A stretch of DNA of 50,961 nucleotides. It comes from Candidatus Omnitrophota bacterium. Lineage in GTDB: Bacteria; Omnitrophota; Gorgyraeia; Gorgyraeales; Gorgyraeaceae. Position 1 is the first letter of the stretch. The number at the start of each line of letters is the position of its first letter. Below are positions 14,209 through 49,051 of this stretch, in pieces. The notes beneath the pieces are model-generated. The model had not been told where the DNA came from, searched no databases, and saw nothing but the letters and a program-made list of their open reading frames with translations. Location: the NCBI GenBank assembly GCA_013202925.1, contig JABMRA010000058.1, positions 1-50,961 of the forward strand, read 5' to 3'. A program made the translations under genes and the position numbers.

Positions 14209-15852
14209 CTATCTTGCCCTTAATATCTTGATATTTGTATACGACCTCACTATGCTATAATTTTCATCAAGGTATTCCGTGACCTCGTCGAGATACATCC
14301 CAAGGACCGGCCTGAATGGCTCAAGCCTCGAAAAATTTGTCGCACAGATAACATATCGCGGTTTCTCGCGCTTCAAATCAGACATGAGCTCTTCAAACCA
14401 CGCTGGATGTAAAAATGAGAACTCTGCTGTGTAAAACCTGCCCAGAGGAGGCCTATCAGTAAAGAAATTGTAGGCGCCGAGATCCGGAAATGTAAAAACT
14501 GTCTCGCGCTCGTCTGTATACAATCTGATATATTCCACTGCCAGGTCTATATCCCTTGCCTGATGGCTGGGTACGATCACGCCTTTTGCGCGGCCAGATT
14601 CTATTGCCAAAGGCTCAGGTTCACTATAAGGAATGGCTGTATGCCTCCTGTCCGCCACAAGACTCTTTACTTCCTTAAAAATAAAAAATCTCTTGTTGTA
14701 TTTGTAGAGCGAAAACACGACTGAATAAAGCGGCACGAGTACGATGAATAAAACAGCCAATGCCTTTTTCAAAAAGGCCGCTGACTTTATATTTTTAACA
14801 TAGATATACGCGCGCTCTAAATAAAAGAACATCAGCAGCAATAGCGGCTGAAGCGCAATCCTGTATTGCGGCCCTTCTATGTCCCTGAAGGCAGCTTTAT
14901 ATAAAAGCAATCCGTAGATAAATACCGGTATCATTGCAATATCAAAAAGCGTATTGTTCCTCTTTATAATCCTGAAAAATAAATAAATGCCCACCGGGAC
15001 ATACAGGAGGGTAGGCAGTGTGTATTTAAAATTGTGATTTGTCGGCGAAAAGGCCAGGAGAAACTCCTTGAAATTCCTGGGTGTTTCAAAACAGAGTGCC
15101 GGGTCAAAGACATCTGTCCTGCAAAGCGCGATCAATGTAGTCTTCAGCGTGGATACAAAAGGGATAAAGGCGCTATGGGAGACCAGATAAAATATAAAAG
15201 GAAATGAAACTATAAGGATCCCTATAATATAAGTAAATAAGGGCCTTATAGCCGTCTCTATATCCTTTTCAAAATATGCAAAGAAGCAGATCATTGCGAT
15301 AATCGAAATAATACTAAAGGCCCCTATCTCAAAACTTGTCCAGAAGCCGATGCCGGACACTATTCCAGCAAGAAATAACCACAGCGTCTTCCTTGTCCTT
15401 AGAAAATTTACAGCCAGAAGGATCGCCAATATCCCGAACCCGAACCGTATCCCGCCCCATACAGCAAAGGTAATCCTTGGAAATGTCCTGGCTACCAGAA
15501 CCAGTGCAAAAAGATAAGCAAATCCTCTTGTCTTAAAAATCTTCAAGGCAAAAATCGCATAGATTATCAGCGTCAGGACCGTGCCAAAATAAAAATACGC
15601 GTTCAGCACCCCGATGTGCTTTCCGAAATGTTCCATCAAATAGGCAGGCATCAATATCTCAAGGGGCCCCCTCAGCACAAACATATCCCTGTAAAACACC
15701 TTTCCATGAAAGAATTCGCTTATCTGCGGGAGATAGATCCCTGTCTCGTAAAAATTTATAGCGCCATGCATAAAATGCGGCTGCAGCGTAACCACCGAGA
15801 CAATCAGCGCAAGCGCTAACCAATCTAAAATTGCCGCCCTATTATTCTCCAT
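14209..15852 (-). CDS. Polytopic membrane protein with a C-terminal soluble domain; possible GT-C-type glycosyltransferase or polymerase
   Basis: About 12 hydrophobic segments over the first ~390 aa, then a hydrophilic tail. Lies inside the glycan cluster. No firm family motif recognised. Confidence 0.4.
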   Translation of the reverse strand: MENNRAAILDWLALALIVSVVTLQPHFMHGAINFYETGIYLPQISEFFHGKVFYRDMFVLRGPLEILMPAYLMEHFGKHIGVLNAYFYFGTVLTLIIYAIFALKIFKTRGFAYLFALVLVARTFPRITFAVWGGIRFGFGILAILLAVNFLRTRKTLWLFLAGIVSGIGFWTSFEIGAFSIISIIAMICFFAYFEKDIETAIRPLFTYIIGILIVSFPFIFYLVSHSAFIPFVSTLKTTLIALCRTDVFDPALCFETPRNFKEFLLAFSPTNHNFKYTLPTLLYVPVGIYLFFRIIKRNNTLFDIAMIPVFIYGLLLYKAAFRDIEGPQYRIALQPLLLLMFFYLERAYIYVKNIKSAAFLKKALAVLFIVLVPLYSVVFSLYKYNKRFFIFKEVKSLVADRRHTAIPYSEPEPLAIESGRAKGVIVPSHQARDIDLAVEYIRLYTDERETVFTFPDLGAYNFFTDRPPLGRFYTAEFSFLHPAWFEELMSDLKREKPRYVICATNFSRLEPFRPVLGMYLDEVTEYLDENYSIVRSYTNIKILRAR

Positions 15853-28862: not shown

Positions 28863-29996
28863 ATGAGAAAGGACTTTAAGCAGGAATACCAGAAGGCCCA
28901 GGCAGAGCTGGCAATGCTCTATGAGATAGGCGATGCCATGCACACCACCCTCAACCTGGAGGAGATCCTTTATATAATACTCACTGCCGTGACGTCGCAT
29001 GCGGGCCTGAGCTTCAACAGGGCAATGCTTTTTCTGGTAAACGAGAAAGAGCAGCGGCTCGAGGGCAAGATGGGCATCGGGCCTGACAGCGACGAGGACG
29101 CAAGCGCGATATGGTCCCATATAGAAAAACACAAGTTGGGGTTTGACGATCTCATAGAGACGCAGAGTAAATTTGAACACCTGAAAAGATCCCAGCTGAA
29201 TAAAATTGTCCGATCAATAAAATTGCCTATAAAAGAAGAATCCGGCATAATGGCGCTCGCGGTAATGGAAGGCATGCCCTTTGCAATAAATACCGAGGAG
29301 GCAAAACAAAAGGCGCGGAATGAACTGCTTGAGCCCCTTAATCTCGAGAATTTTGTCGCAGTCCCCTTAAAGGTAACGGACAAGGTGACAGGCGTAATCG
29401 TAGCGGATAACCGATTCACAGGCAAGGCGATAATGCCAAACGACATCCGCATGCTTACGATGTTCGCTAACCAGGCAGGCCTTGCAATAGAAAACTCACG
29501 GCTTTACGAAAGGACTGTTGTCCTCTCCAATCAGGACTCCCTGACAGGGCTGTGGCACCACGGATATTTTCAGTATCTTCTGGGGGAGCACGTGAAAATG
29601 TCTGCTTCGAAAAAGCAGTGCTTTACCATGCTCATGATCGATATGGACAACTTTAAAGATTTTAATGACGGCCACGGGCATCAGGCTGGAGACGCCATTC
29701 TCAGGAACATCTCAGACATATTCAGGGATGTCTCAAGAAAGATAGATATCATCGCCCGCTACGGCGGCGAGGAATTTGCAATAATCCTCCCCAACACCAA
29801 GAAGGAAGAAGCGCTGTTCCTGGCTGAACGCCTGAGAAAATCCGTTGAGGAAAAGGATGTTATGAAGGGGCTGACCATCAGCATCGGCGTGGCATCATTC
29901 CCTGAGGACGGAGAGAAAAAGGAAGACCTTGTCTCGCAGGCGGACAAGGCGCTGTACGAGGCAAAAAGGACCGGTAAGAACAAAGTCTGCACCTGA
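28863..29996 (+). CDS. GAF-domain diguanylate cyclase (GGDEF) with an intact I-site
   Basis: GGEEF at 29763-29777. RKID (RxxD) at 29736-29747, exactly 5 residues upstream. N-terminal GAF-like region of about 200 aa. Confidence 0.88.
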   Translation: MRKDFKQEYQKAQAELAMLYEIGDAMHTTLNLEEILYIILTAVTSHAGLSFNRAMLFLVNEKEQRLEGKMGIGPDSDEDASAIWSHIEKHKLGFDDLIETQSKFEHLKRSQLNKIVRSIKLPIKEESGIMALAVMEGMPFAINTEEAKQKARNELLEPLNLENFVAVPLKVTDKVTGVIVADNRFTGKAIMPNDIRMLTMFANQAGLAIENSRLYERTVVLSNQDSLTGLWHHGYFQYLLGEHVKMSASKKQCFTMLMIDMDNFKDFNDGHGHQAGDAILRNISDIFRDVSRKIDIIARYGGEEFAIILPNTKKEEALFLAERLRKSVEEKDVMKGLTISIGVASFPEDGEKKEDLVSQADKALYEAKRTGKNKVCT

Positions 29997-37251: not shown

Positions 37252-38235
37252 CTATTTTATATTATAGACCAATGTCTTTGCTTTGCCTTCGCGGACAATA
37301 TCTACATTTAGCGCCTTGATATTTCTATCTGACTTCAGATCCATGCATACCTTGAATATGCCGTAGAGCGTGTTGACCGGCCGGCCGTTTATGCCCTTGA
37401 TCAGATCGCCCTGTTTTATGCCGGTCCTTTCTGCAAGCGCCGCAACAGCCAGGTTCTGAACCAGGAACCCTTCTCTATTTAAAACAACATCCCCTAATCC
37501 GCAATTGAATTTCAAACTCGGGCCTTCCCCAAATCTAAACTGGGGCCTGACGCCTTTTATCACCGAGACGAGCGTCTCTTCTGTGTTGGAAATGGCCTCG
37601 GCCGCGCTCTTTTTGTCAACGGCCCAGGCATCACGCCCGACCTTCTCGATCTTTATATTTTCAAAAAGCCCTGCCTTGATCTTTTTGCTGTCGCTGTTTC
37701 CGGCCCGGGGGGATTTAAACATCTCCATTTCCTCCCCTGGAAGATCCTTTAATAAGGCGTCCCTGTCGTATGCCTTTCCAAGCACTATCCTGCCGCCTTC
37801 CATATCCATGACAATAAAATCTTCTGCGCCGCCTTTGCCGGATTCCCTGGAATCCTTATATCTGTATTCCAGGACCGCTGACTCCACTGTCTTTTCAAAG
37901 ATTATCTCAGCGCCCTCCAGCGGGATCCGCTCGCCCGGATTTACCGTATAATTCTCTTCTGAATTAACGCCTGTCAGTATAAGCATGTCTTTCTTTATAT
38001 CCTTTATGCGCAGGCAGTTTGTTATGTCGCTATTGGAACAAAATATATCGCCCTTGGTATACAGCCTTTTTTTTCCGCCATCCATAATAGCGACTGCGTA
38101 CCGGGCAGGTTCCCCGTCTGTAATGGTCCCGACTACGCCTGCGTCATCGCCGCCCCTCGCATCTCCTGCAGCGGCAAAGGAACCTAATATGAAAGATAGC
38201 ATTAATATTGTAACTATATATCTTAAATGGCGCAT
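37252..38235 (-). CDS. GspC-like secretion system protein: N-terminal signal/anchor, HR-like domain, C-terminal PDZ domain
   Basis: PDZ-like LAERTGIKQGDLIKGINGRPVNTLYGIF at the C-terminus and an HR-like YAVAIMDGGKKRLYTKGDIF near the N-terminus. Directly downstream of the secretin. Confidence 0.5.
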   Translation of the reverse strand: MRHLRYIVTILMLSFILGSFAAAGDARGGDDAGVVGTITDGEPARYAVAIMDGGKKRLYTKGDIFCSNSDITNCLRIKDIKKDMLILTGVNSEENYTVNPGERIPLEGAEIIFEKTVESAVLEYRYKDSRESGKGGAEDFIVMDMEGGRIVLGKAYDRDALLKDLPGEEMEMFKSPRAGNSDSKKIKAGLFENIKIEKVGRDAWAVDKKSAAEAISNTEETLVSVIKGVRPQFRFGEGPSLKFNCGLGDVVLNREGFLVQNLAVAALAERTGIKQGDLIKGINGRPVNTLYGIFKVCMDLKSDRNIKALNVDIVREGKAKTLVYNIK

Positions 38236-38308: not shown

Positions 38309-40315
38309 CTACTCATACCTCACCACTACACTGAACTCTGCCTCGTCTTTTTTCATTGTCCGCGGAAATGCAGGGAATGGCGCGACCTGTTTGACGCAAT
38401 TGACTGCGGAGCGGACAAGCGTCAAATCCGGATTGTTCAATACAACAGGGCCCCTTGTTACAAAACCCTCTTTATCCACTGTAAACTGCAGATCCACCTC
38501 GCCTTTGAGGCCGGAGACATCCTGACGGGCTGCCGCGGCATTTATCTCGTCTCTTATTGCCAGGAAGTAATCCTCGTAAGGCGTCCTTCCCCTGACAGGG
38601 GAACTGGCTGATTTTTTCCTTGTCCTGTATCGAGGCTCGGGTCCTTTTGTGGAACGCGCAAGAGAGATGGTCTCCCATTGCTGCTTCGGCCTGGTCCTGC
38701 GCGCAGCATGGCCTCTGTCCTCTCTTGCCTCTGCCGGTTTCCCATCAAGCATCTTTGAAGCGTCAAATTTTAAATCATCCGACTTTTCGATATTGCCATA
38801 TGCCTTTTTCTTCTTCCATTCGTCGAGATAAAACTGCGCCTCCCCTGTTGTCCTATCCCCCTCTATGATATGCGGCGTAAGGAATATCACGAGCTCTGTC
38901 TTTTCCTTGCTCTTTCCTGTCGTGGAAAATAATTTTCCCAGGAGAGGGATGTCGGAGAGAAAGGGCACCTTTTCCTTGTGGTCCACTATGGTATCCTTCA
39001 TCAGGCCGCCTATTATGAGCGTGGTATTGTCTTTGACAAGCACCGTGGTCTCTACCTCGGACGTGGTGACATACGGGACAACGGTACGGGTCGAGCCGTC
39101 GGGATTCGTCAATGTAACTGTCTTTGTGGGATCCGCAGTGCTCACCTCTGGTCTTATCTTCAACTTTATATAGCCCTCTCTGTTTATCTCAGGCGTGACC
39201 TTGAGCCGCACGCCCACGTCGACAAACTGGACATGGTCTGTGGTGTGGTATGTGCCGCCCGAGGTGGTCGTTACATCACTCGTGACATAGACCTCTTTGG
39301 CGCCTACCAGGATCTTTGCCTCTTCTCTATCGGCTACGGTGATCCGCGGCCTTGAAAGCACATTGGTCTCGCCAAATGTCTTGAGAAGGCTTATCACTGT
39401 TGCGTAGTTTCCGCCCACGGAAGCGATCGTCAGGGTGCTCGGCGTGGTGCCTGAGAGGCCGGCAGAGATATTCGTATTGGCTGTCACGCGCACGTCTGCC
39501 ATCTGGGCCACATCTGCCCAGTCAATGCCGTAACTGTATTTATCCGCGAGCGTCACCTGGATAATATAGGCGTCTATGACCACCTCGCGTGTCTTCTCGT
39601 CAAATGCCTCTATCACATTTTTGATATCCTCTATCTTCGCAGGCGTATCCTGCACCACCACCTTATTTGTCCTTTCGTCAAATCTTATACTGCCTATGTC
39701 CGGTGAGACCATCTTCTCCAATTTATCCTTTATGGGCTCGGCCTTTGCGTAATCGAGAGGGAAGATCTCTGTGGCCAGCTGAACGTCCATCTCTGAGATG
39801 GCATCCGTCATCTGCTTTATATTCTCGGCGTTATCTATCAGGACTATTGTATTGGAGCGGTCGTCCGGGATGATCTTTCCGAGTTTGCTTTTCATCTCTT
39901 TGATGCCCTTTGTCACTTCAGACGCACTGGCGTAATCGAGCTTTACGATCTCTGTCTTGGCCTTGTCCCTGAACCTCCTGCCGTGCAGCTTCTCATATTT
40001 TCCATTGGTCATGATGGTTATAAGCGTGCCTTCCTGTTCGTAGGCCAGGCTGTTTGTCGAGACGATTATGTCCAGGGCATCCATGACCTCCACGTCCCTG
40101 ACATAAAGCGTTACCGTGCCCTTCACGTCTTTATCGGCAACTATGTTCAGCCCGCTTTTCTGGGACAGGATCTTCAGGACATCCTTTATGTCCATGCCCT
40201 TCAGGTCCAAAGAGATCAATTCTGCCTGGTATTCGTATTGCGCCGTCGCGATGGGTATCGCTGAAAAAATGGATATGGAAAATACGAGCGCACACACAAT
40301 GATCCTCTTTACCAT
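38309..40315 (-). CDS. Secretin (GspD/PilQ/MshL family) fused to a C-terminal TonB_C-like domain
   Basis: Start moved to the ATG at 40315 (AAGGAGG 5 nt upstream; signal peptide MVKRIIVCALVFSISIFSAIPIATA). Contains an N0/STN-like domain, two N1 repeats and a secretin core (VLSRPRITV..., VPFLSDIPLLGKLF, ELVIFLTPHII), followed by a ~90-aa basic linker and a ~91-aa TonB_C-like end. Confidence 0.85.
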   Translation of the reverse strand: MVKRIIVCALVFSISIFSAIPIATAQYEYQAELISLDLKGMDIKDVLKILSQKSGLNIVADKDVKGTVTLYVRDVEVMDALDIIVSTNSLAYEQEGTLITIMTNGKYEKLHGRRFRDKAKTEIVKLDYASASEVTKGIKEMKSKLGKIIPDDRSNTIVLIDNAENIKQMTDAISEMDVQLATEIFPLDYAKAEPIKDKLEKMVSPDIGSIRFDERTNKVVVQDTPAKIEDIKNVIEAFDEKTREVVIDAYIIQVTLADKYSYGIDWADVAQMADVRVTANTNISAGLSGTTPSTLTIASVGGNYATVISLLKTFGETNVLSRPRITVADREEAKILVGAKEVYVTSDVTTTSGGTYHTTDHVQFVDVGVRLKVTPEINREGYIKLKIRPEVSTADPTKTVTLTNPDGSTRTVVPYVTTSEVETTVLVKDNTTLIIGGLMKDTIVDHKEKVPFLSDIPLLGKLFSTTGKSKEKTELVIFLTPHIIEGDRTTGEAQFYLDEWKKKKAYGNIEKSDDLKFDASKMLDGKPAEAREDRGHAARRTRPKQQWETISLARSTKGPEPRYRTRKKSASSPVRGRTPYEDYFLAIRDEINAAAARQDVSGLKGEVDLQFTVDKEGFVTRGPVVLNNPDLTLVRSAVNCVKQVAPFPAFPRTMKKDEAEFSVVVRYE

Positions 40316-40337
40316 AACTGCCTCCTTAAATGAGGCC

Positions 40338-40360
40338 ATCATCCGCCTTAGGCGGATGAT
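40338..40360. repeat. 10-bp perfect hairpin ATCATCCGCC-tta-GGCGGATGAT
   Basis: Read directly. The CATCCGCC...GGCGGATG core is shared with the palindrome at 42200-42237. Confidence 0.85.
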
Positions 40361-40490: not shown

Positions 40491-40991
40491 TTATATTTTT
40501 AATTCTATCTCTTCTCCTTTATATTCCAGTATCACTGCGCTTTCCTTTATATCAGAAAGCGTGAATTCTCCGAAACTATCGCCGCGATAAAGAAAATATG
40601 TCTTGCTGGCGGCCTTGTCTTCTATCACGGCCTGGTCTTTATCTCCCGCAATGATGCCCAACAGGCTCAGGTCTTCGGCCAGGTCTTTTTTTGAAACAGC
40701 GGATTTTTCTTCATACTCATAGACATCCTCGTCAAACTCAAATGCATCAGGCAGGGCCTCTGCAGCATCTTTCCCTTCCGGCAGATCAAGGCCAAGCCCC
40801 ACATCTATCTCAGGCATCTTATAATTAAAGGTAAATACGTCAACTAAAAAAATCGCCAGCACCAGTATTATCAGGCCGATTAGAATGCCATTTATTTTTG
40901 TAAAGACCTTGAGATCCTTTTTGAACCGCAGTTTTCCCTGGGCCTGCTTAATAAGATCCAGGAGCTTTTTTTCAGGGGTCATGCCGGTCAT
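40491..40991 (-). CDS. GspB/PilP-like bitopic protein (166 aa)
   Basis: Single TM (INGILIGLIILVLAIFLV), an acidic linker, and a C-terminal HR/PilP-like beta domain (LLGIIAGDKDQAVIED...YFLYRGDSFGEFTLSDIKESAVILEY). Translationally coupled to the exeA-like gene, as exeB is to exeA. Confidence 0.5.
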   Translation of the reverse strand: MTGMTPEKKLLDLIKQAQGKLRFKKDLKVFTKINGILIGLIILVLAIFLVDVFTFNYKMPEIDVGLGLDLPEGKDAAEALPDAFEFDEDVYEYEEKSAVSKKDLAEDLSLLGIIAGDKDQAVIEDKAASKTYFLYRGDSFGEFTLSDIKESAVILEYKGEEIELKI

Positions 40992-41818
40992 TGGATTAAC
41001 TCCACCTCCCTGTCGCGCTCTACTATTTCCATTATTATATCTTCTTCCACTGTATTTCTATCCTTCATCACAAGTTCTTCCAGGGCGCTGTGGCAGAGAT
41101 TGGTTATCTTGCGCGGATATCCCTGGGTGTGCTGGTAGATCAGATCCGTTGCCTTTTCAGTAAACAGCTTCTCTCCTGAATCGTAGCCTGCCTGTTTTAA
41201 TCTGAAGTCTATCATGTCCTTTGTCTCGTTCACATCCAGGGGATTGAGGATATATTTCAGGCTGACCCTGTCCGCAAAATTCCTTATCCTCTGCAGCCTG
41301 GGCAGGAGTTCCATCTGGCCTATGACCACAAGCTGGAGGAGTTTATATTCGTTTGTCTCGTAATTCAGGAGTGTCCGCAGGATTTCCAGGGACGACGGCG
41401 TTAGTTTTTGCGCCTCGTCAATGACGAGCACCACGATATTTTCCTCATCAACGCATTTTTTGAACAGGAATCTCTCTATGGCCTCTTTGTAATCCAGGAC
41501 AGAGCGGAAGGCCGGCCTTATGCCGAACACCTTTGCCAGATACGTAACGAATTGGAACTCTGAATCATAGGCAGGATCGAATATCATGTGCGAGATAATC
41601 CCTGTTTCCTTGCTCAATACCTGGATCAGCGCCCTTGACAGGGTCGTCTTTCCAGTGCCAACGTCGCCCAGGATAAGGCTCATGCCCCTTTTTAACCTGA
41701 CCGCTATTTCGAGCCGCTGGAGCGCCTGCCTGTGGGATATGGACGGGTAAAGAAAGTAAGGGTCTGGGCTTGTTGAAAACGGCTCTTTATTGAGTTTGAG
41801 CACCTTGTAATACGGCAT
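40988..41818 (-). CDS. ExeA/GspA/MshM-like AAA ATPase (ATPase domain only)
   Basis: Walker A GDVGTGKTTL, Walker B VLVIDEAQ, 276 aa. No peptidoglycan-binding C-terminal domain. Confidence 0.75.
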   Translation of the reverse strand: MPYYKVLKLNKEPFSTSPDPYFLYPSISHRQALQRLEIAVRLKRGMSLILGDVGTGKTTLSRALIQVLSKETGIISHMIFDPAYDSEFQFVTYLAKVFGIRPAFRSVLDYKEAIERFLFKKCVDEENIVVLVIDEAQKLTPSSLEILRTLLNYETNEYKLLQLVVIGQMELLPRLQRIRNFADRVSLKYILNPLDVNETKDMIDFRLKQAGYDSGEKLFTEKATDLIYQHTQGYPRKITNLCHSALEELVMKDRNTVEEDIIMEIVERDREVELIQ

Positions 41819-41825
41819 ACCTGCT

Positions 41826-42050
41826 TCAGCCTCCTATGAGTTCCTTTATCTCTGCCAGGGACTTGTGCTCCCTGCGCAATGCGCGTATCTTCTGCAGCAT
41901 CTCCAGGGTCGTATTGTCAAAATATCTAAATTTTGTCTCCGGGCTTCTGCCTATCTCCCTTATCAGACCAAGATTAAGGTAATACTTTATGGTATAAATA
42001 GTATGTCCGCTCAACCTCGCCAGATCCTTTATCAGATATATACAATCCAT
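41826..42050 (-). CDS. MerR-family helix-turn-helix protein (74 aa, DNA-binding domain plus a short helix)
   Basis: IYLIKDLARLSGHTIYTIKYYLNLGLI is a MerR-type wHTH. Start set to the ATG at 42050 (AGGAG 9 nt upstream) rather than the track's GTG at 42080, which lies inside a hairpin. Confidence 0.7.
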   Translation of the reverse strand: MDCIYLIKDLARLSGHTIYTIKYYLNLGLIREIGRSPETKFRYFDNTTLEMLQKIRALRREHKSLAEIKELIGG

Positions 42051-42072
42051 GCCGCATCTCTCCTGTGAAATG

Positions 42073-42105
42073 CTTGACACTTTAGTCCTGGACTAAAGTG
42101 TCAAG
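42073..42105. promoter_or_regulatory. Perfect palindrome CTTGACACTTTAGTC-ctg-GACTAAAGTGTCAAG in the 5' UTR of the MerR-like gene (candidate operator or RNA hairpin)
   Basis: 15-bp perfect arms, read directly. It lies between the predicted promoter (42156-42184) and the SD. Confidence 0.6.
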
Positions 42106-42155
42106 TTTATGCTGTCTGAGTAGATAGCGATAGCGCACTCTCTATTTAGAGAGTA

Positions 42156-42184
42156 AGTATACCTTATGATTCCCGTGCTGTCAA
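42156..42184 (-). promoter_or_regulatory. Near-consensus sigma70 promoter TTGACA-17 nt-TATACT internal to the secretion cluster
   Basis: Minus strand reads TTGACAgcacgggaatcataaggTATACT, with the -35 at 42179-42184 and the -10 at 42156-42161. Confidence 0.6.
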
Positions 42185-42199
42185 GGTAAGCACGCGCCA

Positions 42200-42237
42200 A
42201 AATGCTTGACATCCGCATAGGCGGATGTCAAGCATTT
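42200..42237 (-). terminator. Perfect 17-bp-arm hairpin AAATGCTTGACATCCGC-atag-GCGGATGTCAAGCATTT overlapping the gspM-like stop codon (terminator or attenuator candidate)
   Basis: Read directly. On the minus-strand RNA the stem ends in UUU followed by U. It lies just upstream of the internal promoter. Confidence 0.5.
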
Positions 42238-42745
42238 AGATTATTGGTTTGGATAAGATCAGGGTGCCTTTTAGGCGGGAAGGAACTTCTCCTGTGCCTC
42301 TGAGGTCGAACTTCTTTATGCTGATGTATGCGGGTGATTTGATAAGGCCCGCGGCAAACCTATTGATGGCTGAAAAATCGCCCTCTAACTGCAGCTCGAT
42401 GACGTACTCCTTGTAGAGCCCTTGTTGAATCGCTGGACTTGGCCTTATATTGGCTGTCTTGATGCCCGAAGAATCCGCCTCTTTCTCTATGTAGCCCAGG
42501 ATTTCTGACATGCCCTTGAGGGACCGCGCATAGGTATTGTATTGATCGATGATGACATCCTTGTCTTTTAATAACCTCAGGCCCTTTTTGAATTCTATGC
42601 TTTTTGCGATTATCTCGCTGTCGAGGCTTCTCCATTTTCTGAAAAAGGGCCTGAATACAAGGCCGTACACTATAGCCAGACCCAAAAAAGCCACAGCTAC
42701 AATAAAGACATATCTCTCGCGCCTTGAAAGATTCAAGCGGATCAT
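42236..42745 (-). CDS. PilO/GspM/MshJ-like bitopic assembly protein
   Basis: N-terminal TM (YVFIVAVAFLGLAIVYGLV), coiled-coil region, and a C-terminal ferredoxin-like YKEYVIELQLEGDFSAINRFAAGL pattern typical of PilO. Confidence 0.55.
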   Translation of the reverse strand: MIRLNLSRRERYVFIVAVAFLGLAIVYGLVFRPFFRKWRSLDSEIIAKSIEFKKGLRLLKDKDVIIDQYNTYARSLKGMSEILGYIEKEADSSGIKTANIRPSPAIQQGLYKEYVIELQLEGDFSAINRFAAGLIKSPAYISIKKFDLRGTGEVPSRLKGTLILSKPII

Positions 42746-43890
42746 AGGTCCTCACCCGTGTTTAAGCGGCAATGGATATTGAAATCAATAAAATCCTCAC
42801 CTTTTACATTTTTCTTGGCAGCGTATTCGACCTCCGCGCTTTTAAAATATTTTAACCCTTCAAGGGTTTTTACAAATGCGAGGGTAGAAGGCATGCCTTT
42901 CGATGTCCCCTTATAAAACACATCCCCCTTGCCATTGTAATCCAGGCCGGATATCGAGATATCCGCAGGTATTAGACTATAGAAACGCTGCAGCATCTCG
43001 ACGATAAATAGCCCCTCTTCCGTGCGTTCCCTGGCAACATCTGTCCTTTTGATGAACTTATTCAGCCGTTCTATCTCGGACTGCATCCGGACCACCCGCG
43101 GCGAAAACACCCCTAGAAATCTCTTTTTCTCATAGATCTTAAAAGAGAGCGCTGCAAAAGATAGTATTACAACAAATGCTGTAAGGGAATACGTTACCAG
43201 GTTTGCCTTTCTCTTCTCCAAGCGCATCCTTTTGCCGCTGATCTCCCCAGGCAAAAGGGTGATCTTTGCCGGAAGGCCCGCAGCTGCCAGGTCGTCGGTA
43301 TATTCGCAAAAACTTGCCGGAATAGTAAAATGTTTTTCTATATGCGGCCTCGCCTCCTGGAGATCCACGCTTGATGAATACGTTACAACAATATTTTCAA
43401 TCGCAGGCGCGGCCTTTGCCTTTTCATAGGCCAGGACCGAGCGGTCTATCTCTTCCAAAAACCTCTCGCTATTTTTGAATCCCCTTGAAAAGATAGGCCG
43501 GGCCTTATCTATTACCATTATCTCTGAATCCTTCTCTCCGATATGGATGACGAAATTTACCTTATCCTGCGCCAGCACGCCTTTTTTTAACAAGAATAGA
43601 TATAATAATTCGGTATGCAGGCGCACATCATCCACATGGCCCCTGCCTGAGGTGACATCCTGGACTGTGGCCTTATTCGCAACCGCCAGCATGATGGATG
43701 AAAAACCAGGCCTGTACGAGCCGAGGATCCGGTATCCCACGACCATCTCCTGCCTCGGATACGGGATATCCTTTACGGCCTGGAAACCCACCATATTCCT
43801 GATCTCAGGATCATCAGTAGAAGGTATATCTACAAACCTAAGGAAGACCAAATGCCGCGGGATTACGAGGATGTTTTTTTCTTTGGCCAT
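42742..43890 (-). CDS. PilM-PilN fusion (GspL/MshI-like) assembly protein
   Basis: Start set to the ATG at 43890 (GGAAGGA SD; TGATG overlap with the gspK stop). Cytoplasmic PilM-like half, TM (LVTYSLTAFVVILSFAALSF), periplasmic PilN-like half. Confidence 0.55.
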   Translation of the reverse strand: MAKEKNILVIPRHLVFLRFVDIPSTDDPEIRNMVGFQAVKDIPYPRQEMVVGYRILGSYRPGFSSIMLAVANKATVQDVTSGRGHVDDVRLHTELLYLFLLKKGVLAQDKVNFVIHIGEKDSEIMVIDKARPIFSRGFKNSERFLEEIDRSVLAYEKAKAAPAIENIVVTYSSSVDLQEARPHIEKHFTIPASFCEYTDDLAAAGLPAKITLLPGEISGKRMRLEKRKANLVTYSLTAFVVILSFAALSFKIYEKKRFLGVFSPRVVRMQSEIERLNKFIKRTDVARERTEEGLFIVEMLQRFYSLIPADISISGLDYNGKGDVFYKGTSKGMPSTLAFVKTLEGLKYFKSAEVEYAAKKNVKGEDFIDFNIHCRLNTGEDL

Positions 43891-44714
43891 CAATATTCCT
43901 TCCAGTGATAGATCCTGCCTGTCCTGTCTATTACTGCCTCTATGCCCCTGAACGACTCTTTGTCTTCTGAGAAAAATGACTTTGCCCATATCCTGAAGCA
44001 GCTGGATCGCACGCTAAATAAGGCAGGGTCCAGCCCTGCTATCATACTGATATCGCTTGCGTCCCTGAATATGCCGTCGTCCTCAGTGCCCTGGTTTCCG
44101 TCAGGGCCTCTCCTGTATTCCCATACACCCTGAACCAGGCCCCGGTCTCCCAGAACTGCATAGAGTACCTTCTCGGTCGCGGTATTTATATTGACCCTGG
44201 CATCTGCACCTCTATGGATCGTGACAGAATCCCTGATCAACGAAAAGACCTCGCGCGTCATGTCCTCTACCAAAAATAATTCTTCAATGAATTCAAAGCC
44301 CTCAGCGCCCTTTTTATTCCTGTAATCCAGGATCTTTCCGGCAATGTAGCCGTCCATGCCAAGCCTGGTAAACTGGGCCTCCTGCAAGGTGCTGCTGTTC
44401 AGATTGAGCCGGCTGTCTTCGTCAGAGGCACCGTAGAATACGGTGTCGTCCCTCAATATGAGTTTTTTGGGATCTCCCTCGTCCCTGCACCAGTCCTCAT
44501 TCAGGCTGTCATACGAATTTGCATCCCTGGCAATCTCCGTAAGCATCTTCATGACGCCTGCCCTTGCCAGATACGTGGACTTTAGGCTGCGGGATTCGTG
44601 CCTGGCCAATTTTACGTCACTGGCGGCGCGACGGGAAAGGGCTATGCTCAATATCGCAAGGATGAGCAATATCCACAGGGTAAATATCAGGATGCTGCCT
44701 TTTTGCCTTGTCAT
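43890..44714 (-). CDS. gspK: GspK-like minor pseudopilin
   Basis: GSILIFTLWILLILAILSIAL N-terminus without the conserved Glu5, and the helix-hairpin-helix-like VNINTATEKVLYAVLG typical of T2SS protein K. Confidence 0.7.
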   Translation of the reverse strand: MTRQKGSILIFTLWILLILAILSIALSRRAASDVKLARHESRSLKSTYLARAGVMKMLTEIARDANSYDSLNEDWCRDEGDPKKLILRDDTVFYGASDEDSRLNLNSSTLQEAQFTRLGMDGYIAGKILDYRNKKGAEGFEFIEELFLVEDMTREVFSLIRDSVTIHRGADARVNINTATEKVLYAVLGDRGLVQGVWEYRRGPDGNQGTEDDGIFRDASDISMIAGLDPALFSVRSSCFRIWAKSFFSEDKESFRGIEAVIDRTGRIYHWKEY

Positions 44715-45304
44715 TTTTCTCCAAGTTCTCCGTGCGGGAGGAAGATCACTTTATTATAAAATCCCTTGCCCTCGTCTGCTGCCATGGAAATCCTCACGCC
44801 GGAAGGAAGCGCGCCTTTTTTCTTGCCGTCCCAAAACGCCTGCCATTCAAATTCATTAGATGGTCCTTCTGCCTTGTATGCATAGGCAAATTTTATCTCG
44901 TTCACTAAAGGGGAGACCTTTTTAATTTTTTCTTTGGTCCCTTCTATGTCTTCAGAAAAATCCCTCTCTTTTCTTACCAGTTCCTTGAGCCCGGCGCGGC
45001 TGTCTATGTTTACACTATAGGTAATGATACAGGCCCTGTCTCTGTCTCCTGCCGGGATGGTTAACGGAAAAACCATTTCTTTGTCAGTGCCGCTGAACGG
45101 TATGCCGGAAAAAAAGAAGGTCTCCTTCAATTCCTTCTCTACCCTTAAAAGGGCCAGTCTGACTTTCTGAAGAGACCTCTCATCCTCGCTCCTGCGCCAC
45201 GTCTTTATCCCCAGATTAAAGGCGCTGTAAACAGCGATGATCACTATTGTAAATATTGTAATGCTGACTATGAGTTCGATAATGGTAAATGCGCTGCGCT
45301 TCAT
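44711..45304 (-). CDS. Minor pseudopilin (GspJ-like) with a prepilin-type N-terminal methylation motif
   Basis: RSAFTIIELIVSITIFTIVIIAVY, 197 aa. Confidence 0.65.
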   Translation of the reverse strand: MKRSAFTIIELIVSITIFTIVIIAVYSAFNLGIKTWRRSEDERSLQKVRLALLRVEKELKETFFFSGIPFSGTDKEMVFPLTIPAGDRDRACIITYSVNIDSRAGLKELVRKERDFSEDIEGTKEKIKKVSPLVNEIKFAYAYKAEGPSNEFEWQAFWDGKKKGALPSGVRISMAADEGKGFYNKVIFLPHGELGEK

Positions 45305-45672
45305 TTGAAATATGTCATGATCGAGAGGTCGTATTGCGCGTTTCTTTTGTCCCAGAGGATCTTCAGCGTGACCTCATCGAGCTCCTCTTTCTCCAATTCC
45401 ACCACATCCATGCGCCAGGAAAAGGCCGAGTCAAAACCGCTCAATGCCCCGGCTGACGAACCTTTTTTTCTTTCAGCATTGCCTGCCTCGTAGATCTTCT
45501 CTTCGAGCAAAAGGCCTGCCTTAAAATAATCCTCTGAAGAATCTATTGCCCTGAGGGATATTACAAAAGAATGCAGCGCCAGCAGGATCCCTACAGAAAG
45601 GATAGCTACCGACACCATTACCTCCAGCAATAAAAATCCCTTATTCTTTTTCTTCCCAGCTGGCAATGTCAT
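45301..45672 (-). CDS. Minor pseudopilin (GspI/GspH-like)
   Basis: KGFLLLEVMVSVAILSVGILLAL prepilin motif. Start trimmed to the ATG at 45672 (or TTG at 45666). It still overlaps gspG by about 30 nt in another frame. Confidence 0.6.
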   Translation of the reverse strand: MTLPAGKKKNKGFLLLEVMVSVAILSVGILLALHSFVISLRAIDSSEDYFKAGLLLEEKIYEAGNAERKKGSSAGALSGFDSAFSWRMDVVELEKEELDEVTLKILWDKRNAQYDLSIMTYFK

Positions 45673-46054
45673 CCCCGCCGCCTTGTTTGCCGTCAGGGCC
45701 GTAGGAATACAGGTCATAGTCCGGACTGTGGTCGCCCGGTGATGCATACACATACGGATTTCCCCAGGGGTCGCTCGCCTGTCTTTTAAGATACGGCCCT
45801 TTCCAGTTTCTGACGGAAGCCGCTTTTGTGCTCAAACCAGACAGGCCTTCTTCTGTAGTCGGATATCGTCCATTGTCCAGCTCGTACAGATCGAGCGCCA
45901 CAGAGATATTGGCGTGTATATCTGCGGTGGCTGCGGATATCCTTGCCTCTTCTGAGCGGCCCACGAGCCGCGGCATCACCATTGAGACAAGCACACCTAT
46001 AATAATCACAACGAGCATCAGTTCGATCAATGTAAAACCTCGGCTAGATTTCAT
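45641..46054 (-). CDS. gspG: Major pseudopilin GspG
   Basis: RGFTLIELMLVVIIIGVL, ...DLYELDNGRYPTTEEGL...WKGPYL...DPWGNPYVY is the classical GspG signature, 137 aa. Confidence 0.9.
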   Translation of the reverse strand: MKSSRGFTLIELMLVVIIIGVLVSMVMPRLVGRSEEARISAATADIHANISVALDLYELDNGRYPTTEEGLSGLSTKAASVRNWKGPYLKRQASDPWGNPYVYASPGDHSPDYDLYSYGPDGKQGGGDDIASWEEKE

Positions 46055-46082
46055 TGAAACCCCCCTTTTTAGCCTTAAGTTA

Positions 46083-46124
46083 TAAGTTGTAAGCTATATT
46101 TAACCTCTTACAGCTTACAACTTA
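46083..46124. repeat. 13-bp perfect inverted repeat TAAGTTGTAAGCT / AGCTTACAACTTA (16-nt loop) in the gspF-gspG spacer
   Basis: Read directly. Flanked by further TAAGTT/TAAGCT-type direct repeats. Confidence 0.85.
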
Positions 46125-46143
46125 AAGCTTATAGCTATTTCTA

Positions 46144-47340
46144 TTAATGCGCGGCTAGCGATATCTGGAATACAGGCAGGAGCATTGAGAGGACGATGAA
46201 GCCCACGATAAGGCCCATGGCCAAGATCAGGACCGGCTCCAAAAGAGAAGACATTACCTTGATGGCCCTGTCAGTCTCTGTCTCGTAACTCTTTGCCACT
46301 CTTAAAAGCATCTTGTCCAAATGGCCTGCCTCTTCTCCGACTGCTGCCATGTTCACCACGAACCGCGGAAATGCGGAATTGTTCCTTATTGCCGCGGACA
46401 GCAAACTGCCTGCCTTGACATCCGCGTAAATGCGATTTATGTCCTGCCTGACAGTTTCATTGGCCGCCACTTCAGACGTTATTTTCAATGAATAGAGTAT
46501 CGGCACGCCGCTCTTTAAAAGCATGGAGAGCGTCCTCGAAAACCTCGCGAGTTCCACATCCTTTACCAATGCACTGATAATAGGTAATTTAGACACTGCC
46601 CTGCCTGAACCGCCTGTGCTTTTAATAAAAAATATCCCTACTCCTGCCAGCGCCAGCAATAAGATCCAGAAACGCCTTACGAAATCGCTCAGCCCGATGA
46701 TGATCCTCGTGGGAAGCGGCAGGACCTCGCCCATTTCAACAAACACACTGGCCAGCCTCGGTATGACAAACGCCATTAAAATAAATATCGTCACAATGCC
46801 CACTGCCGCCATCAGCGCAGGATATGCCAGGGCCATACGGATCCTGGACCTGATCAACGCCTCCTTGTCCAGAAAATCCGAGATATTGGACAGGGCCTCG
46901 CTCAACGCGCCCGAGGCCTCGCCAGCACGCACCAGGCTTACGTAGAGATTGGAAAAGATATGGGGATGGCTGGCCAGGGATTCTGAAAACGTGCTGCCCT
47001 GTTTTATCCTGTCTCTTACAGTGCGTATGATTTCTTTTAGATACGGGTGGGTTGTCTGCGTCTCAATGATACTCAGCGCGTCAAAAAGCGCCAGCCCTGA
47101 ATCCACAAGCTCTAAAAGCTGCCTTGTAAAATTTGCCAGGTCCCTGACTGCGACCCGCTGATTTGAAAAAAAAGCGTCTCTGGATTTTCTGTCAGCTGCA
47201 GAAGGCGCTTCTCTGATCCATATAGGATGACAGCCGGATGCGAGCAATCTATTTACAGCGGCAGTCTCCGAATCTGCCTCAATGTTTCCCTCTAAAACCT
47301 CGGACGGTCCTTTTTTTGCCTTGAAGAGAAAACGGCCCAT
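46144..47340 (-). CDS. gspF: Type II secretion / type IV pilus platform protein GspF/PilC
   Basis: Two T2SSF repeats and three TM segments, 398 aa. Confidence 0.9.
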   Translation of the reverse strand: MGRFLFKAKKGPSEVLEGNIEADSETAAVNRLLASGCHPIWIREAPSAADRKSRDAFFSNQRVAVRDLANFTRQLLELVDSGLALFDALSIIETQTTHPYLKEIIRTVRDRIKQGSTFSESLASHPHIFSNLYVSLVRAGEASGALSEALSNISDFLDKEALIRSRIRMALAYPALMAAVGIVTIFILMAFVIPRLASVFVEMGEVLPLPTRIIIGLSDFVRRFWILLLALAGVGIFFIKSTGGSGRAVSKLPIISALVKDVELARFSRTLSMLLKSGVPILYSLKITSEVAANETVRQDINRIYADVKAGSLLSAAIRNNSAFPRFVVNMAAVGEEAGHLDKMLLRVAKSYETETDRAIKVMSSLLEPVLILAMGLIVGFIVLSMLLPVFQISLAAH

Positions 47341-47353
47341 GCGGGAGTGAAAG

Positions 47354-49051
47354 TCAATCTTCTTTGGTGACCCTTATTACCTCGTTCATAGTGGTCAGAC
47401 CCTGTTTTATTTTTTCCCATCCATCCATGCGAAGCGTGCGCATGCCTGATCTCAGGGCCTTATTTTTTATCTGATCGGACGATGCCCTGCGAAGCACCAG
47501 ATCGCGGATATCCTCGTTCATAAACAGGAATTCATAGATGCCGGTGCGGCCCTTGTAGCCGCTAAACTTGCAGGCCTCGCAGCCCTTGCCTTCGTAAATA
47601 ACCAAGTCTTTTGGATTTCTGTCTATGCCAAATTCTTTTAACACCTTTTTATCCGGTTTCTTTTCGACCCTGCACTCCGGGCAGAGAAGCCGCACGAGTC
47701 GCTGGGCAATGAAGCACTCCACGGAACTTGACACGAGGTACGGCTCAACGCCCATGTCCAAAAGGCGCGTAATAGCGCCCGCGGCATCATTCGTATGCAA
47801 GGTGCTGAACACCAGGTGTCCTGTCAGGGCAACGCGGATAGTGGTCTCCACTGTCTCAAAGTCCCTCACCTCTCCCACCATCATGACGTCAGGGTCGTGG
47901 CGAAGCATGGAGCGGAGCCCTGTTGCAAAACTCAAACCTATGCGTGGGTGGATCTGGACCTGCGTCACGCCTTTTAATTGATATTCTATGGGGTCTTCTA
48001 TTGTTATGATCTTTTTGTCTTTTTGATTTATTTTGGACAGGCACGAATAGAGCGTGGTGGTCTTACCGCTGCCCGTAGGCCCTGTTACAAAAATAATGCC
48101 GTGGGGCTTGTGTATAAGTCTCCCCAGTCGCGCGAGGTCAAAATCGGAAAGCCCTAATCTTTTCAGGCTGTACAGCATACTGCCCGAAAGGAGTCTGATA
48201 TCAACGCTCTCGCCGAATTGCGTTGGCAGGATAGAGATCCTCAGGTCCAGCTCCTCTCCGCCCATTTTTATCTTGACGCGGCCGTCCTGGGGGAGCCTGT
48301 GCTCTGCTATATCCAGGCCAGCCATGATCTTTATCCTTGATGTGATAGCGGACCGGAAATATTTTATATTCTGCGGGATCGGGATATCGTATAGTATGCC
48401 GTCCACCCTGTATCTCACCCTCAATTCATCCTCGTAGGGCTCGATATGGATATCGGTGGCCCTGTCCCTGACTGCCTGGCCAAGGATCTGATTTACAAAT
48501 CTTATCATAGACGCGTCCTCTGCGACATCTTCTATGTCTTCTGTCCTTGCCCTGGACAATAAGATCTCCTCGATGTCTTTTCCGGCATGCATGATCTTTT
48601 CTATTGTCTCCGCGCCTACGCCGTAATATCTCCTGATGGCATCGACTATGTCTTGCCCGCCCGCCAGGACAGCATTGATATCGCAGCCCAACAGCAGCCT
48701 TAAGTCATCTAGTATCTCTATGTCCAAGGGGTCTGTAAGCGCGACGGTCAGCGCATTGTCATTAAATTTTACCGGCATGAATCTATAGTGGCAGGCAAAC
48801 CTGGCAGGGACCTTTTCAAAGACCCTCGTATCGATGCTGACGTCCTTCATCATCACGTACGGGATATTCAATTGCTCGGAAAGCGCAGGGTACAATGCCT
48901 CTTCCTTGATAAGGCCCAATTTTATCAGGGTAAGGCCGAGAAACTCGCCTGTCTTTTGATGCCCTTCCAGGCCAGTTGCCAGTTGGCTACGCGAGATCAG
49001 GCCTTTTTGAACCAGGGTCTCGCCCAGAAATACAGTCCTTCTGACCAGCAT
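47354..49051 (-). CDS. gspE: Type II secretion / type IV pilus assembly ATPase GspE/MshE with an N-terminal T2SSE_N (MshEN-like) domain
   Basis: Walker A VTGPTGSGKTTTLY, Asp/His boxes, tetracysteine CPEC...CEAC. The N-terminus carries two LGxxLVxxGLIxxxxL motifs. Confidence 0.92.
   Translation of the reverse strand: MLVRRTVFLGETLVQKGLISRSQLATGLEGHQKTGEFLGLTLIKLGLIKEEALYPALSEQLNIPYVMMKDVSIDTRVFEKVPARFACHYRFMPVKFNDNALTVALTDPLDIEILDDLRLLLGCDINAVLAGGQDIVDAIRRYYGVGAETIEKIMHAGKDIEEILLSRARTEDIEDVAEDASMIRFVNQILGQAVRDRATDIHIEPYEDELRVRYRVDGILYDIPIPQNIKYFRSAITSRIKIMAGLDIAEHRLPQDGRVKIKMGGEELDLRISILPTQFGESVDIRLLSGSMLYSLKRLGLSDFDLARLGRLIHKPHGIIFVTGPTGSGKTTTLYSCLSKINQKDKKIITIEDPIEYQLKGVTQVQIHPRIGLSFATGLRSMLRHDPDVMMVGEVRDFETVETTIRVALTGHLVFSTLHTNDAAGAITRLLDMGVEPYLVSSSVECFIAQRLVRLLCPECRVEKKPDKKVLKEFGIDRNPKDLVIYEGKGCEACKFSGYKGRTGIYEFLFMNEDIRDLVLRRASSDQIKNKALRSGMRTLRMDGWEKIKQGLTTMNEVIRVTKED

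Follow-up and report, generated by a model that had tools for sequence, protein, structure and literature searches.

We describe a secretin of an Omnitrophota bacterium that continues, past its outer-membrane core, into a disordered tether and a TonB/TolA-type C-terminal domain. It is encoded in a 50,961-nucleotide stretch of contig JABMRA010000058.1 (GCA_013202925.1, Candidatus Omnitrophota bacterium), here called the window; coordinates without a locus label are those of the window and lie on the minus strand unless marked (+). The gene occupies 38309..40315 and specifies 668 amino acids (aa) plus a stop codon. Its longest open reading frame (ORF) is 38309..40342; the start used here, the second ATG at 40315 (MVKR...), is that of the gene caller's product and of every homolog. 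Pfam resolves the 668-aa product into STN, two Secretin_N domains, Secretin and, at the extreme C-terminus, TonB_C. The first-pass annotation, made from the sequence alone, had expected Secretin and TonB_C from such a search, and both score above their cut-offs. Residues 1-25 (40241..40315) are a Sec signal peptide, not a TonB-type membrane anchor, as read from the sequence, with putative cleavage between ...PIATA and QY; AlphaFold2 (AF2) places a helix at residues 2-18 followed by a low-confidence stretch. The N0/STN domain follows at residues 33-103 (40007..40219), recognised by Pfam STN (28.7 bits against a cut-off of 28.4), by type_II_gspD_N0 and by AF2 secondary structure. The earlier reading of this domain holds as to its presence, but not as to a special TonB link, because N0/STN is an ordinary part of secretins. 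Two Secretin_N ring domains lie at residues 120-240 (39596..39958; Pfam, two stretches, E = 8.6e-24, 84 bits, and AF2), and the beta-barrel core at residues 311-485 (38861..39385; PF00263, E = 4.5e-50, 170 bits against a cut-off of 27.5). The best Foldseek matches of the secretin body are PulD, GspD and ExeD, with PulD at E = 3e-23. The protein is outside all three NCBIfam subfamilies GspD (TIGR02517, 276 against a cut-off of 351), PilQ (TIGR02515, 256 against 284) and MshL (TIGR02519, 202 against 250), and no AMIN domain was found in it by Pfam and NCBIfam scans. The core terminates at ...ELVIFLTPHIIEGD and, as first noticed, the ORF runs on for about 180 codons.

These codons divide into a linker stretch, residues 488-577 (38585-38854), and a 91-aa domain, residues 578-668 (38312..38584), boundaries that agree exactly with those first given. 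The domain has the topology alpha-beta-beta-alpha-beta and ends ...VVVRYE-COOH. Pfam TonB_C scores 31.4 bits on the tail alone and 28.7 on the whole protein (gathering cut-off 24.6), and the NCBIfam model tonB_Cterm (TIGR01352; cut-off 27.1) is just passed by the tail alone, at 27.5, but not by the whole protein, at 24.5. Against PDB sequences the single tail already reaches E = 0.004, and a profile of 39 tails matches the C-terminal domain of Helicobacter pylori TonB (6sly) at E = 3.7e-5, followed by HasB and TonB2. AF2, run on the tail alignment, returns a mean predicted local distance difference test (pLDDT) of 89.5. Helices are modelled at 8-25 and 60-73 and strands at 34-43, 48-54 and 87-96, and the same elements appear in the full-length model at pLDDT 87-95. 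When this tail model is compared with the PDB by Foldseek, the top 19 matches, and 23 of the first 24, are C-terminal domains of TonB, HasB, FusB or TolA; the best is again 6sly (E = 2.3e-4, TMq 0.70, probability 1.00), and HasB, FusB and TolAIII follow. The TonB/TolA fold that had been proposed for the tail is thus borne out by profile, prediction and structure comparison, and we are nearly certain that the tail is a TonB/TolA C-terminal domain (PF03544 / PF13103) on a real fusion. It does not follow that the protein is an energy transducer. Where TonB has an inner-membrane helix that engages ExbB/ExbD and bears the S..H motif, this protein begins with a cleavable signal peptide and continues into secretin domains, and in place of the proline-rich spacer of TonB the linker is charged, predicted to be disordered and 0-13% proline. 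The fused TonB_C cannot itself transduce energy because it is attached to an outer-membrane channel, not to an ExbBD-bound helix. The fusion is present in public databases in many copies under automatic names, and the NCBI name of several fused homologs, 'energy transducer TonB', is a misnomer; these proteins are secretins, and TonB counts in Omnitrophota genomes are inflated by them.

The fusion recurs widely among relatives. Two collections were used, namely the best 120 database homologs listed, and a GTDB scan of one genome per species with the full-length secretin alignment as query. The tail is kept in the same ORF in all 120 listed homologs, nearly all of which end ...VVRYE and which come from dozens of independent assemblies; they are 50-71% identical to the window secretin, with query coverage of 93-100% for almost all and 77-91% in three. 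Columns of the alignment are conserved at 0.63-0.77 across the tail and at 0.65-0.95 across the folded secretin domains (residues 41-480), and at 0.23-0.41 over the linker. By this measure the tail is as conserved as the secretin body, while the linker varies freely, and its retention at this level goes far beyond chance. The GTDB scan returned 79 loci, 54 of which encode the tail: 52 in the same ORF, deep branches at 35-48% identity among them, and two in an apparently split form. Contig ends cut the gene at four further loci, which are not informative, and nine belong to other phyla (Vibrio (MshL), Nitrospirales, Nitrospinota, Desulfobacteraceae, Deltaproteobacteria and Gallionella), where the secretin stops 4-36 aa past the core. 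The remaining 12 are Omnitrophota-type secretins without a tail, comprising a paralog clade of 11 and one close ortholog (L033:3295-4833, 703-bit body) in which the tail is truly lost, the protein ending 22 aa past the core with a GspC-like gene directly downstream. All carriers with a phylum-level name are Candidatus Omnitrophota or Omnitrophica, including Ca. Gorgyraea, Ca. Saelkia and Ca. Taenaricola; ENA bins titled only 'uncultured Planctomycetia' or 'uncultured bacterium', titles that are unchecked, hold secretins that are 55-69% identical. Taken across these alignments, the secretin-TonB_C fusion is old and under purifying selection.

This distribution also decides whether the join could be an artefact, owed to a shifted reading frame, to chimeric joining or to two genes read through as one. 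The two split loci might be taken that way, since the tail of L032 lies in another frame and an in-frame TAG precedes that of L039. However, the shift in L032 is a masked N-run, L039 differs by a single stop codon in one metagenome-assembled genome (MAG), and the ORF is uninterrupted in the 52 other loci and the 120 listed homologs from independent assemblies; furthermore, GC content shows no discontinuity at the core-tail junction, and orthologs show no pattern of a separate downstream gene. We therefore regard an artefact as refuted by conservation across independent assemblies, its probability being close to nil. At L039 itself (L039:6440-6500) the TAG lies 14 codons past the core, and the same frame goes on to encode a short linker and an intact TonB_C. 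This stop may stem from an error in sequencing, from a recent decay into a pseudogene or from a true split.

Between core and TonB_C lies a tether with more structure than its composition suggests. Directly after the core, residues 492-508 (38792..38842), EAQFYLDEWKKKKAYGN, form a conserved amphipathic helix in the homolog alignment (AF2 helix 491-507), whose ..Y.x[DE]W.. motif stands at a fixed offset in nearly all close homologs. This helix occupies the position of an S-domain, and no pilotin-like family was found in general Pfam and NCBIfam scans of the cassette proteins. Residues 509-577 (38585..38791) are a disordered, charged and length-variable tether according to AF2 and the homolog alignment, with a pLDDT of about 30 over residues 507-575 indicating disorder. 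In homologs the linker measures 35-156 aa, is rich in K/R and D/E alike and has a net charge between -12 and +28. The first-pass annotation had described a long, basic and low-complexity linker; the window copy is indeed K/R-rich, with a net charge of +10, but given the range among homologs 'basic' describes this copy and not the family, and we reject a basic linker as a functional feature on the same grounds. Low complexity holds for the disordered charged tether but not for the conserved helix, nor for a short linear motif inside the tether, residues 542-553 (38657..38692). The consensus of this motif in the homolog alignment, PK.KW[AT]P[LI][FL]G, is present in 104 of 119 close homologs at a median of 27 aa upstream of the TonB_C domain and is duplicated in homolog P0120, and the window copy, RPKQQWETISLA, is degenerate. 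Deep-branching fused secretins are without it, having shorter linkers and other clade-specific islands, e.g. DGAVAKMVKGEVI.

Among free-standing proteins, the tail is closest to the TonB of its own phylum. When its profile was searched against 1.84 billion representative proteins, 1,482 matched at E <= 1e-3, ranked with secretin tails and their fragments first, more divergent secretin fusions of 560-850 aa after them, and then many proteins of about 200-240 aa that have an N-terminal transmembrane (TM) helix with the S..H motif and are true TonB proteins. The relatives of one such free-standing TonB are, where named, Ca. Omnitrophota, bar one bin labelled Patescibacteria group. The tail profile matches all 120 listed relatives of this TonB over its full length at a median of 48 bits, which is above the score of the generic Pfam TonB_C on the tail, and the two domain families have in common a Y..YY..R..I N-terminal helix, a PFP.FPK motif and the C-terminal end. 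From these full-length matches and common features we conclude that the tail and the C-terminal domain of the phylum's own TonB are paralogs. The tail profile matched E. coli TonB at too few positions to root the TonB_C groups, which were compared by identity. In two genomes, with the same arrangement (L082:4913-7702 and L083:5038-7696), a free TonB of about 230 aa stands directly after a Plug + TonB_dep_Rec receptor that has the TonB box L[ED]KIVVTP; a CobA/BtuR-family gene lies near this pair. The kinship also bears on the ...RYE-COOH end, which we had considered as a ligand of the PDZ domain in the downstream GspC-like protein. We rejected this idea, as the last strand lies in a confidently folded sheet and free-standing TonB proteins end alike (...FE[IV]E), so that the C-terminal end is ancestral to the fold.

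A second class of Omnitrophota secretins carries the same kind of domain. P0170 (1,091 aa) is a Tad/CpaC-type secretin in which T2SS-T3SS_pil_N and Secretin are followed by two TonB_C domains (80 bits), and its family, which includes P0415-P0420, spans about 840-1,110 aa, with named members from Ca. Omnitrophica / Omnitrophota. The Tad-type secretins are without N0/STN. Their TonB_C domains share 25% identity with the C-terminal domains of free TonB proteins but 20% with the GspD-type tail, which weakly suggests a separate acquisition. A duplicated TonB_C tail is found in another secretin homolog, P0121 (851 aa), and TonB_C domains appear to be expanded in Omnitrophota; P0149 and P0163 have four or five tandem TonB_C/TonB_2 repeats, the named one (P0149) being from Omnitrophota. 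Tandem second secretins in two Omnitrophota genomes (L064:6427-8541 and L065:6344-8419) end in a long linker and tetratricopeptide (TPR) repeats, not TonB_C, and in L061 the second secretin is prolonged by a long charged stretch that the contig end cuts off. Tethered C-terminal modules are thus a general design of Omnitrophota secretins; secretins of other phyla in the database carry LysM, AMIN or TPR modules.

The outer-membrane secretin described here belongs to a type IV filament machine that resembles the T2SS (type II secretion system) and the mannose-sensitive haemagglutinin (MSHA) pilus. The cassette is complete and forms one operon; in transcription order it encodes a GspE/MshE ATPase with an MshEN domain, GspF, GspG, two minor pseudopilins, a GspK-like, a PilN-like and a PilO-like protein, MerR (together 41826..49051, Pfam), an ExeA/MshM-like AAA+ ATPase, a GspB-like protein, the secretin and a GspC-like protein, and the order PilN-PilO-MerR-ExeA-GspB-secretin is syntenic on a 561-kb contig of a relative. 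The ExeA/MshM-like ATPase (40988..41818, 276 aa; AAA_22, pepcterm_ATPase 189 bits) is present in 46 of 50 tailed loci and, unlike Aeromonas ExeA, is without a periplasmic peptidoglycan-binding domain. The GspB-like protein (40491..40991), upstream of the secretin and present in 49 of 50 tailed loci, combines a TM segment with a C-terminal homology-region (HR)-type domain, to which weak T2SSB and T2SSC matches at residues 104-165 point. Downstream of the secretin, the GspC-like protein (37252..38235) has a TM segment and, judged by eye, an HR-like one, and ends in a PDZ domain (PDZ_2, NCBIfam GspC_delta). Its gene was seen in 26 of 50 tailed loci, a figure restricted by how far the flanks reach. 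The small MerR-family regulator gene (41826-42080) lies between the PilO-like and ExeA-like genes and is there in 41 of 50 tailed loci. A GAF-GGDEF diguanylate cyclase is encoded a few genes from the cassette at 28863-29996 (+), likewise at L001, and the cassette ATPase (47354-49051) bears MshEN, a cyclic di-GMP-binding module, which hints at cyclic di-GMP control of the filament machine. Mur ligases, a penicillin-binding protein (PBP) transpeptidase and a heptosyltransferase are encoded in the window as well, from which it follows that both peptidoglycan and lipopolysaccharide are present in the cell. No second TonB_C was found within the window, and a 547-aa ORF at 14209-15852 has no Pfam match at E <= 1e-5.

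In the model that we propose, the tail serves for docking in the periplasm, takes hold of a partner through beta-strand addition and so positions, stabilises or helps to assemble the channel, a reading that we favour tentatively, at slightly less than even balance. The first-pass annotation had suggested docking on a partner's strand or on the secretin's own periplasmic rings, or anchoring to peptidoglycan. Each secretin subunit would end in the short helix, a disordered tether of about 70 residues and the 91-residue TonB_C. As a secretin channel has 12-15 subunits, it would hang a skirt of 12-15 such tethered modules into the periplasm. The TonB box and the TolB N-terminus are targets bound through beta-strand addition. 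All TonB/TolA C-terminal domains so far characterised capture their target in this way (PMC12204202), and the tail is likewise expected to add an extended strand of its target to the edge of its own beta-sheet. Since the tail is anchored to the outer membrane and not to an ExbBD motor, it cannot transduce the proton-motive force (PMF) itself and would act as a passive dock or tether. Its target is more likely a general envelope component than a machine-specific part, because two unrelated secretin classes carry TonB_C; GspC, GspB or N0 are less likely as partners, as the Tad-type secretins are without them yet carry the domain. The role would then be the one that AMIN or LysM domains, the S-domain with its pilotin, or GspA/GspB scaffolds fill in other phyla, and there is room for it in this cassette, where the secretin is without AMIN and the ExeA-like ATPase without a peptidoglycan-binding domain.

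Several points weigh against this model. The full-length AF2 model (predicted template modelling score 0.40) gives the tail no docked position on its own chain, and no TonB-box-like motif, by the pattern L[ED]KIVVTP of the Omnitrophota receptor, was found in any ORF of the window. The periplasmic side of the C-terminus is assumed from T2SS secretin structures, and extracellular C-termini are reported for the type IV pilus (T4P) secretins BfpB and PilQ (PMC4453517). The argument from the Tad-type fusions assumes that both fusions serve the same purpose. Finally, the tailless ortholog at L033 keeps the gene neighbours of the tailed loci and, together with the tailless clade of 11 Omnitrophota secretins, implies that the module is not indispensable for a working secretin.

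Other mechanisms would make different use of the same domain. In the manner of a Rosetta-stone fusion, TonB_C could mark a direct contact of TonB-type domains with secretin machines, hard-wired on two secretin classes. TonB C-terminal domains can dimerise. The tail might pair with a real TonB C-terminal domain or fill the site of a TonB paralog on the secretin, and the channel would thereby be linked to, or freed from, a PMF-driven motor of the ExbBD/Poc type. PocAB-TonB3 is needed for the assembly and localisation of type IVa pili in Pseudomonas aeruginosa, with a contact between TonB3 and PilQ N0 proposed (PMC5285504), and TonB2 is needed for transformation in Acinetobacter baumannii (PMC8811193); the paralogy of the tail with the C-terminal domain of the phylum's own TonB and its occurrence on both secretin classes fit as well. 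Yet N0 cannot be the shared target when Tad-type secretins are without N0/STN, AF2 placed no tail on N0, and a gene fusion is a hint of interaction and not proof, for which reasons we consider a direct Ton coupling doubtful. A direct anchor, in which TonB_C binds the cell wall and replaces the AMIN domain of PilQ or the peptidoglycan-binding domain of ExeA/GspA, would account for a secretin without AMIN next to an ExeA-like ATPase of 276 aa with no periplasmic domain in an organism that makes peptidoglycan. An older association of TonB with peptidoglycan is reportedly on record, which is unconfirmed and serves as a lead only. Fixing secretins to peptidoglycan is commonly needed (PMC9239104; PMC4098917), and other secretins carry LysM or AMIN. 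We nevertheless judge this anchor unlikely, as the documented binding mode of the fold is strand addition to protein (PMC12204202) and references cited in that study point to ExbD, not TonB, for the peptidoglycan role in the Ton system.

The ligand might also lie within the secretin itself. TonB_C would then bind the tether motif PK.KW[AT]P[LI][FL]G of its own or a neighbouring subunit, or the periplasmic rings, forming a daisy-chain collar that stabilises the oligomer or controls gating. A hydrophobic island kept within an otherwise variable tether, at a fairly constant distance to the domain in most close homologs and duplicated in one, speaks for such a collar; against it, deep-branching fused secretins keep the domain but do without the motif, the window copy of the motif is degenerate, and AF2 left it undocked at a pLDDT of about 30, which makes self-binding quite unlikely. 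If the C-terminus were outside, the tethered modules could serve as surface adhesins that grip host or prey proteins round a pilus or secretion pore. To our knowledge, every TonB/TolA C-terminal domain is periplasmic, and the closest paralog of the tail is a periplasmic TonB paired with a receptor. The extracellular C-termini of BfpB and PilQ would agree with an outside location and Omnitrophota have been proposed to be epibionts or predators relying on pili (PMC10066038), but the C-termini of T2S and type III secretion (T3S) secretins are not exposed (PMC4453517) and it is T2SS secretins that the window secretin matches best in structure, so that we hold an adhesin to be very improbable.

In agreement with the first-pass annotation, which knew of no described secretin-TonB_C fusion, a full-text literature search found no paper describing one. 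The fusion is unmentioned in a broad evolutionary study of TonB/TolA (PMC12204202), in the main Omnitrophota genomics paper (PMC10066038) and in a 2026 preprint on complete Omnitrophota genomes (10.64898/2026.06.07.730766), which notes only 'TonB-domain content' near secretion genes; this phylum-wide architecture is apparently undescribed. Proteins that interact are often marked by natural fusions, and this one provides an independent genomic hint that TonB-type domains work with secretin machines, with a bearing on the need for TonB3/PocAB in Pseudomonas pilus assembly. PocAB-TonB3 are ExbBD-TonB homologs whose role in pilus assembly and polar localisation in P. aeruginosa has been called mechanistically enigmatic (PMC5285504), and the literature search found no paper settling their mechanism. 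Were direct Ton coupling true, it would offer a concrete mechanism for the need of PocAB-TonB3 in Pseudomonas and TonB2 in Acinetobacter in type IV pilus assembly, and a secretin could have a mechanical link to a PMF-driven motor of the Ton type, or be made independent of it. Omnitrophota are uncultivated, ultra-small and probably host-dependent bacteria, with a lifestyle in which pili and secretion systems presumably play a central part.

Among known systems, the window secretin is most like the T2SS secretins GspD, PulD and ExeD and the MSHA secretin MshL, with which it shares the signal peptide, N0/STN, Secretin_N rings and barrel, as well as a gene setting among GspE, F, G, K, PilN/O and ExeA-, GspB- and GspC-like genes. 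It differs in having only three periplasmic domains and a tail of about 180 residues, whereas Vibrio MshL and the relatives in other phyla stop shortly past the core. The tail in turn shares fold and topology with the TonB/TolA C-terminal domains 6sly, HasB, FusB and TolAIII, including an extra N-terminal helix as seen in longer constructs of H. pylori TonB and HasB. Unlike these, it sits on an outer-membrane channel and not on an inner-membrane helix that engages ExbBD, its tether is charged where that of TonB is proline-rich, and the 'SSG' motif of the Tad-fused TonB_C copies is absent from it. A functional tie between a TonB-type protein and a type IV filament machine that contains a secretin is likewise seen in the PocAB-TonB3 system of P. 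aeruginosa and with TonB2 of A. baumannii; there it involves a separate inner-membrane TonB with its motor, here only the C-terminal domain, covalently on the secretin. Secretin targeting, anchoring and alignment in the envelope differ by lineage, being achieved through pilotins, through AMIN or LysM domains or through GspA/B scaffolds. In its proposed role of tying the channel to an envelope component the tail would be comparable to AMIN in PilQ, LysM in some CpaC-type secretins, the S-domain with its pilotin (which is likewise C-terminal), TPR pilotins and GspA/GspB (the function of GspB is described in PMC9239104). It differs from all of these in its fold and in its expected ligand, a protein strand rather than a glycan or lipoprotein, and a tethered, strand-capturing TonB-type domain, phylum-wide and on two secretin classes, would thus represent a fourth solution to secretin targeting and anchoring.

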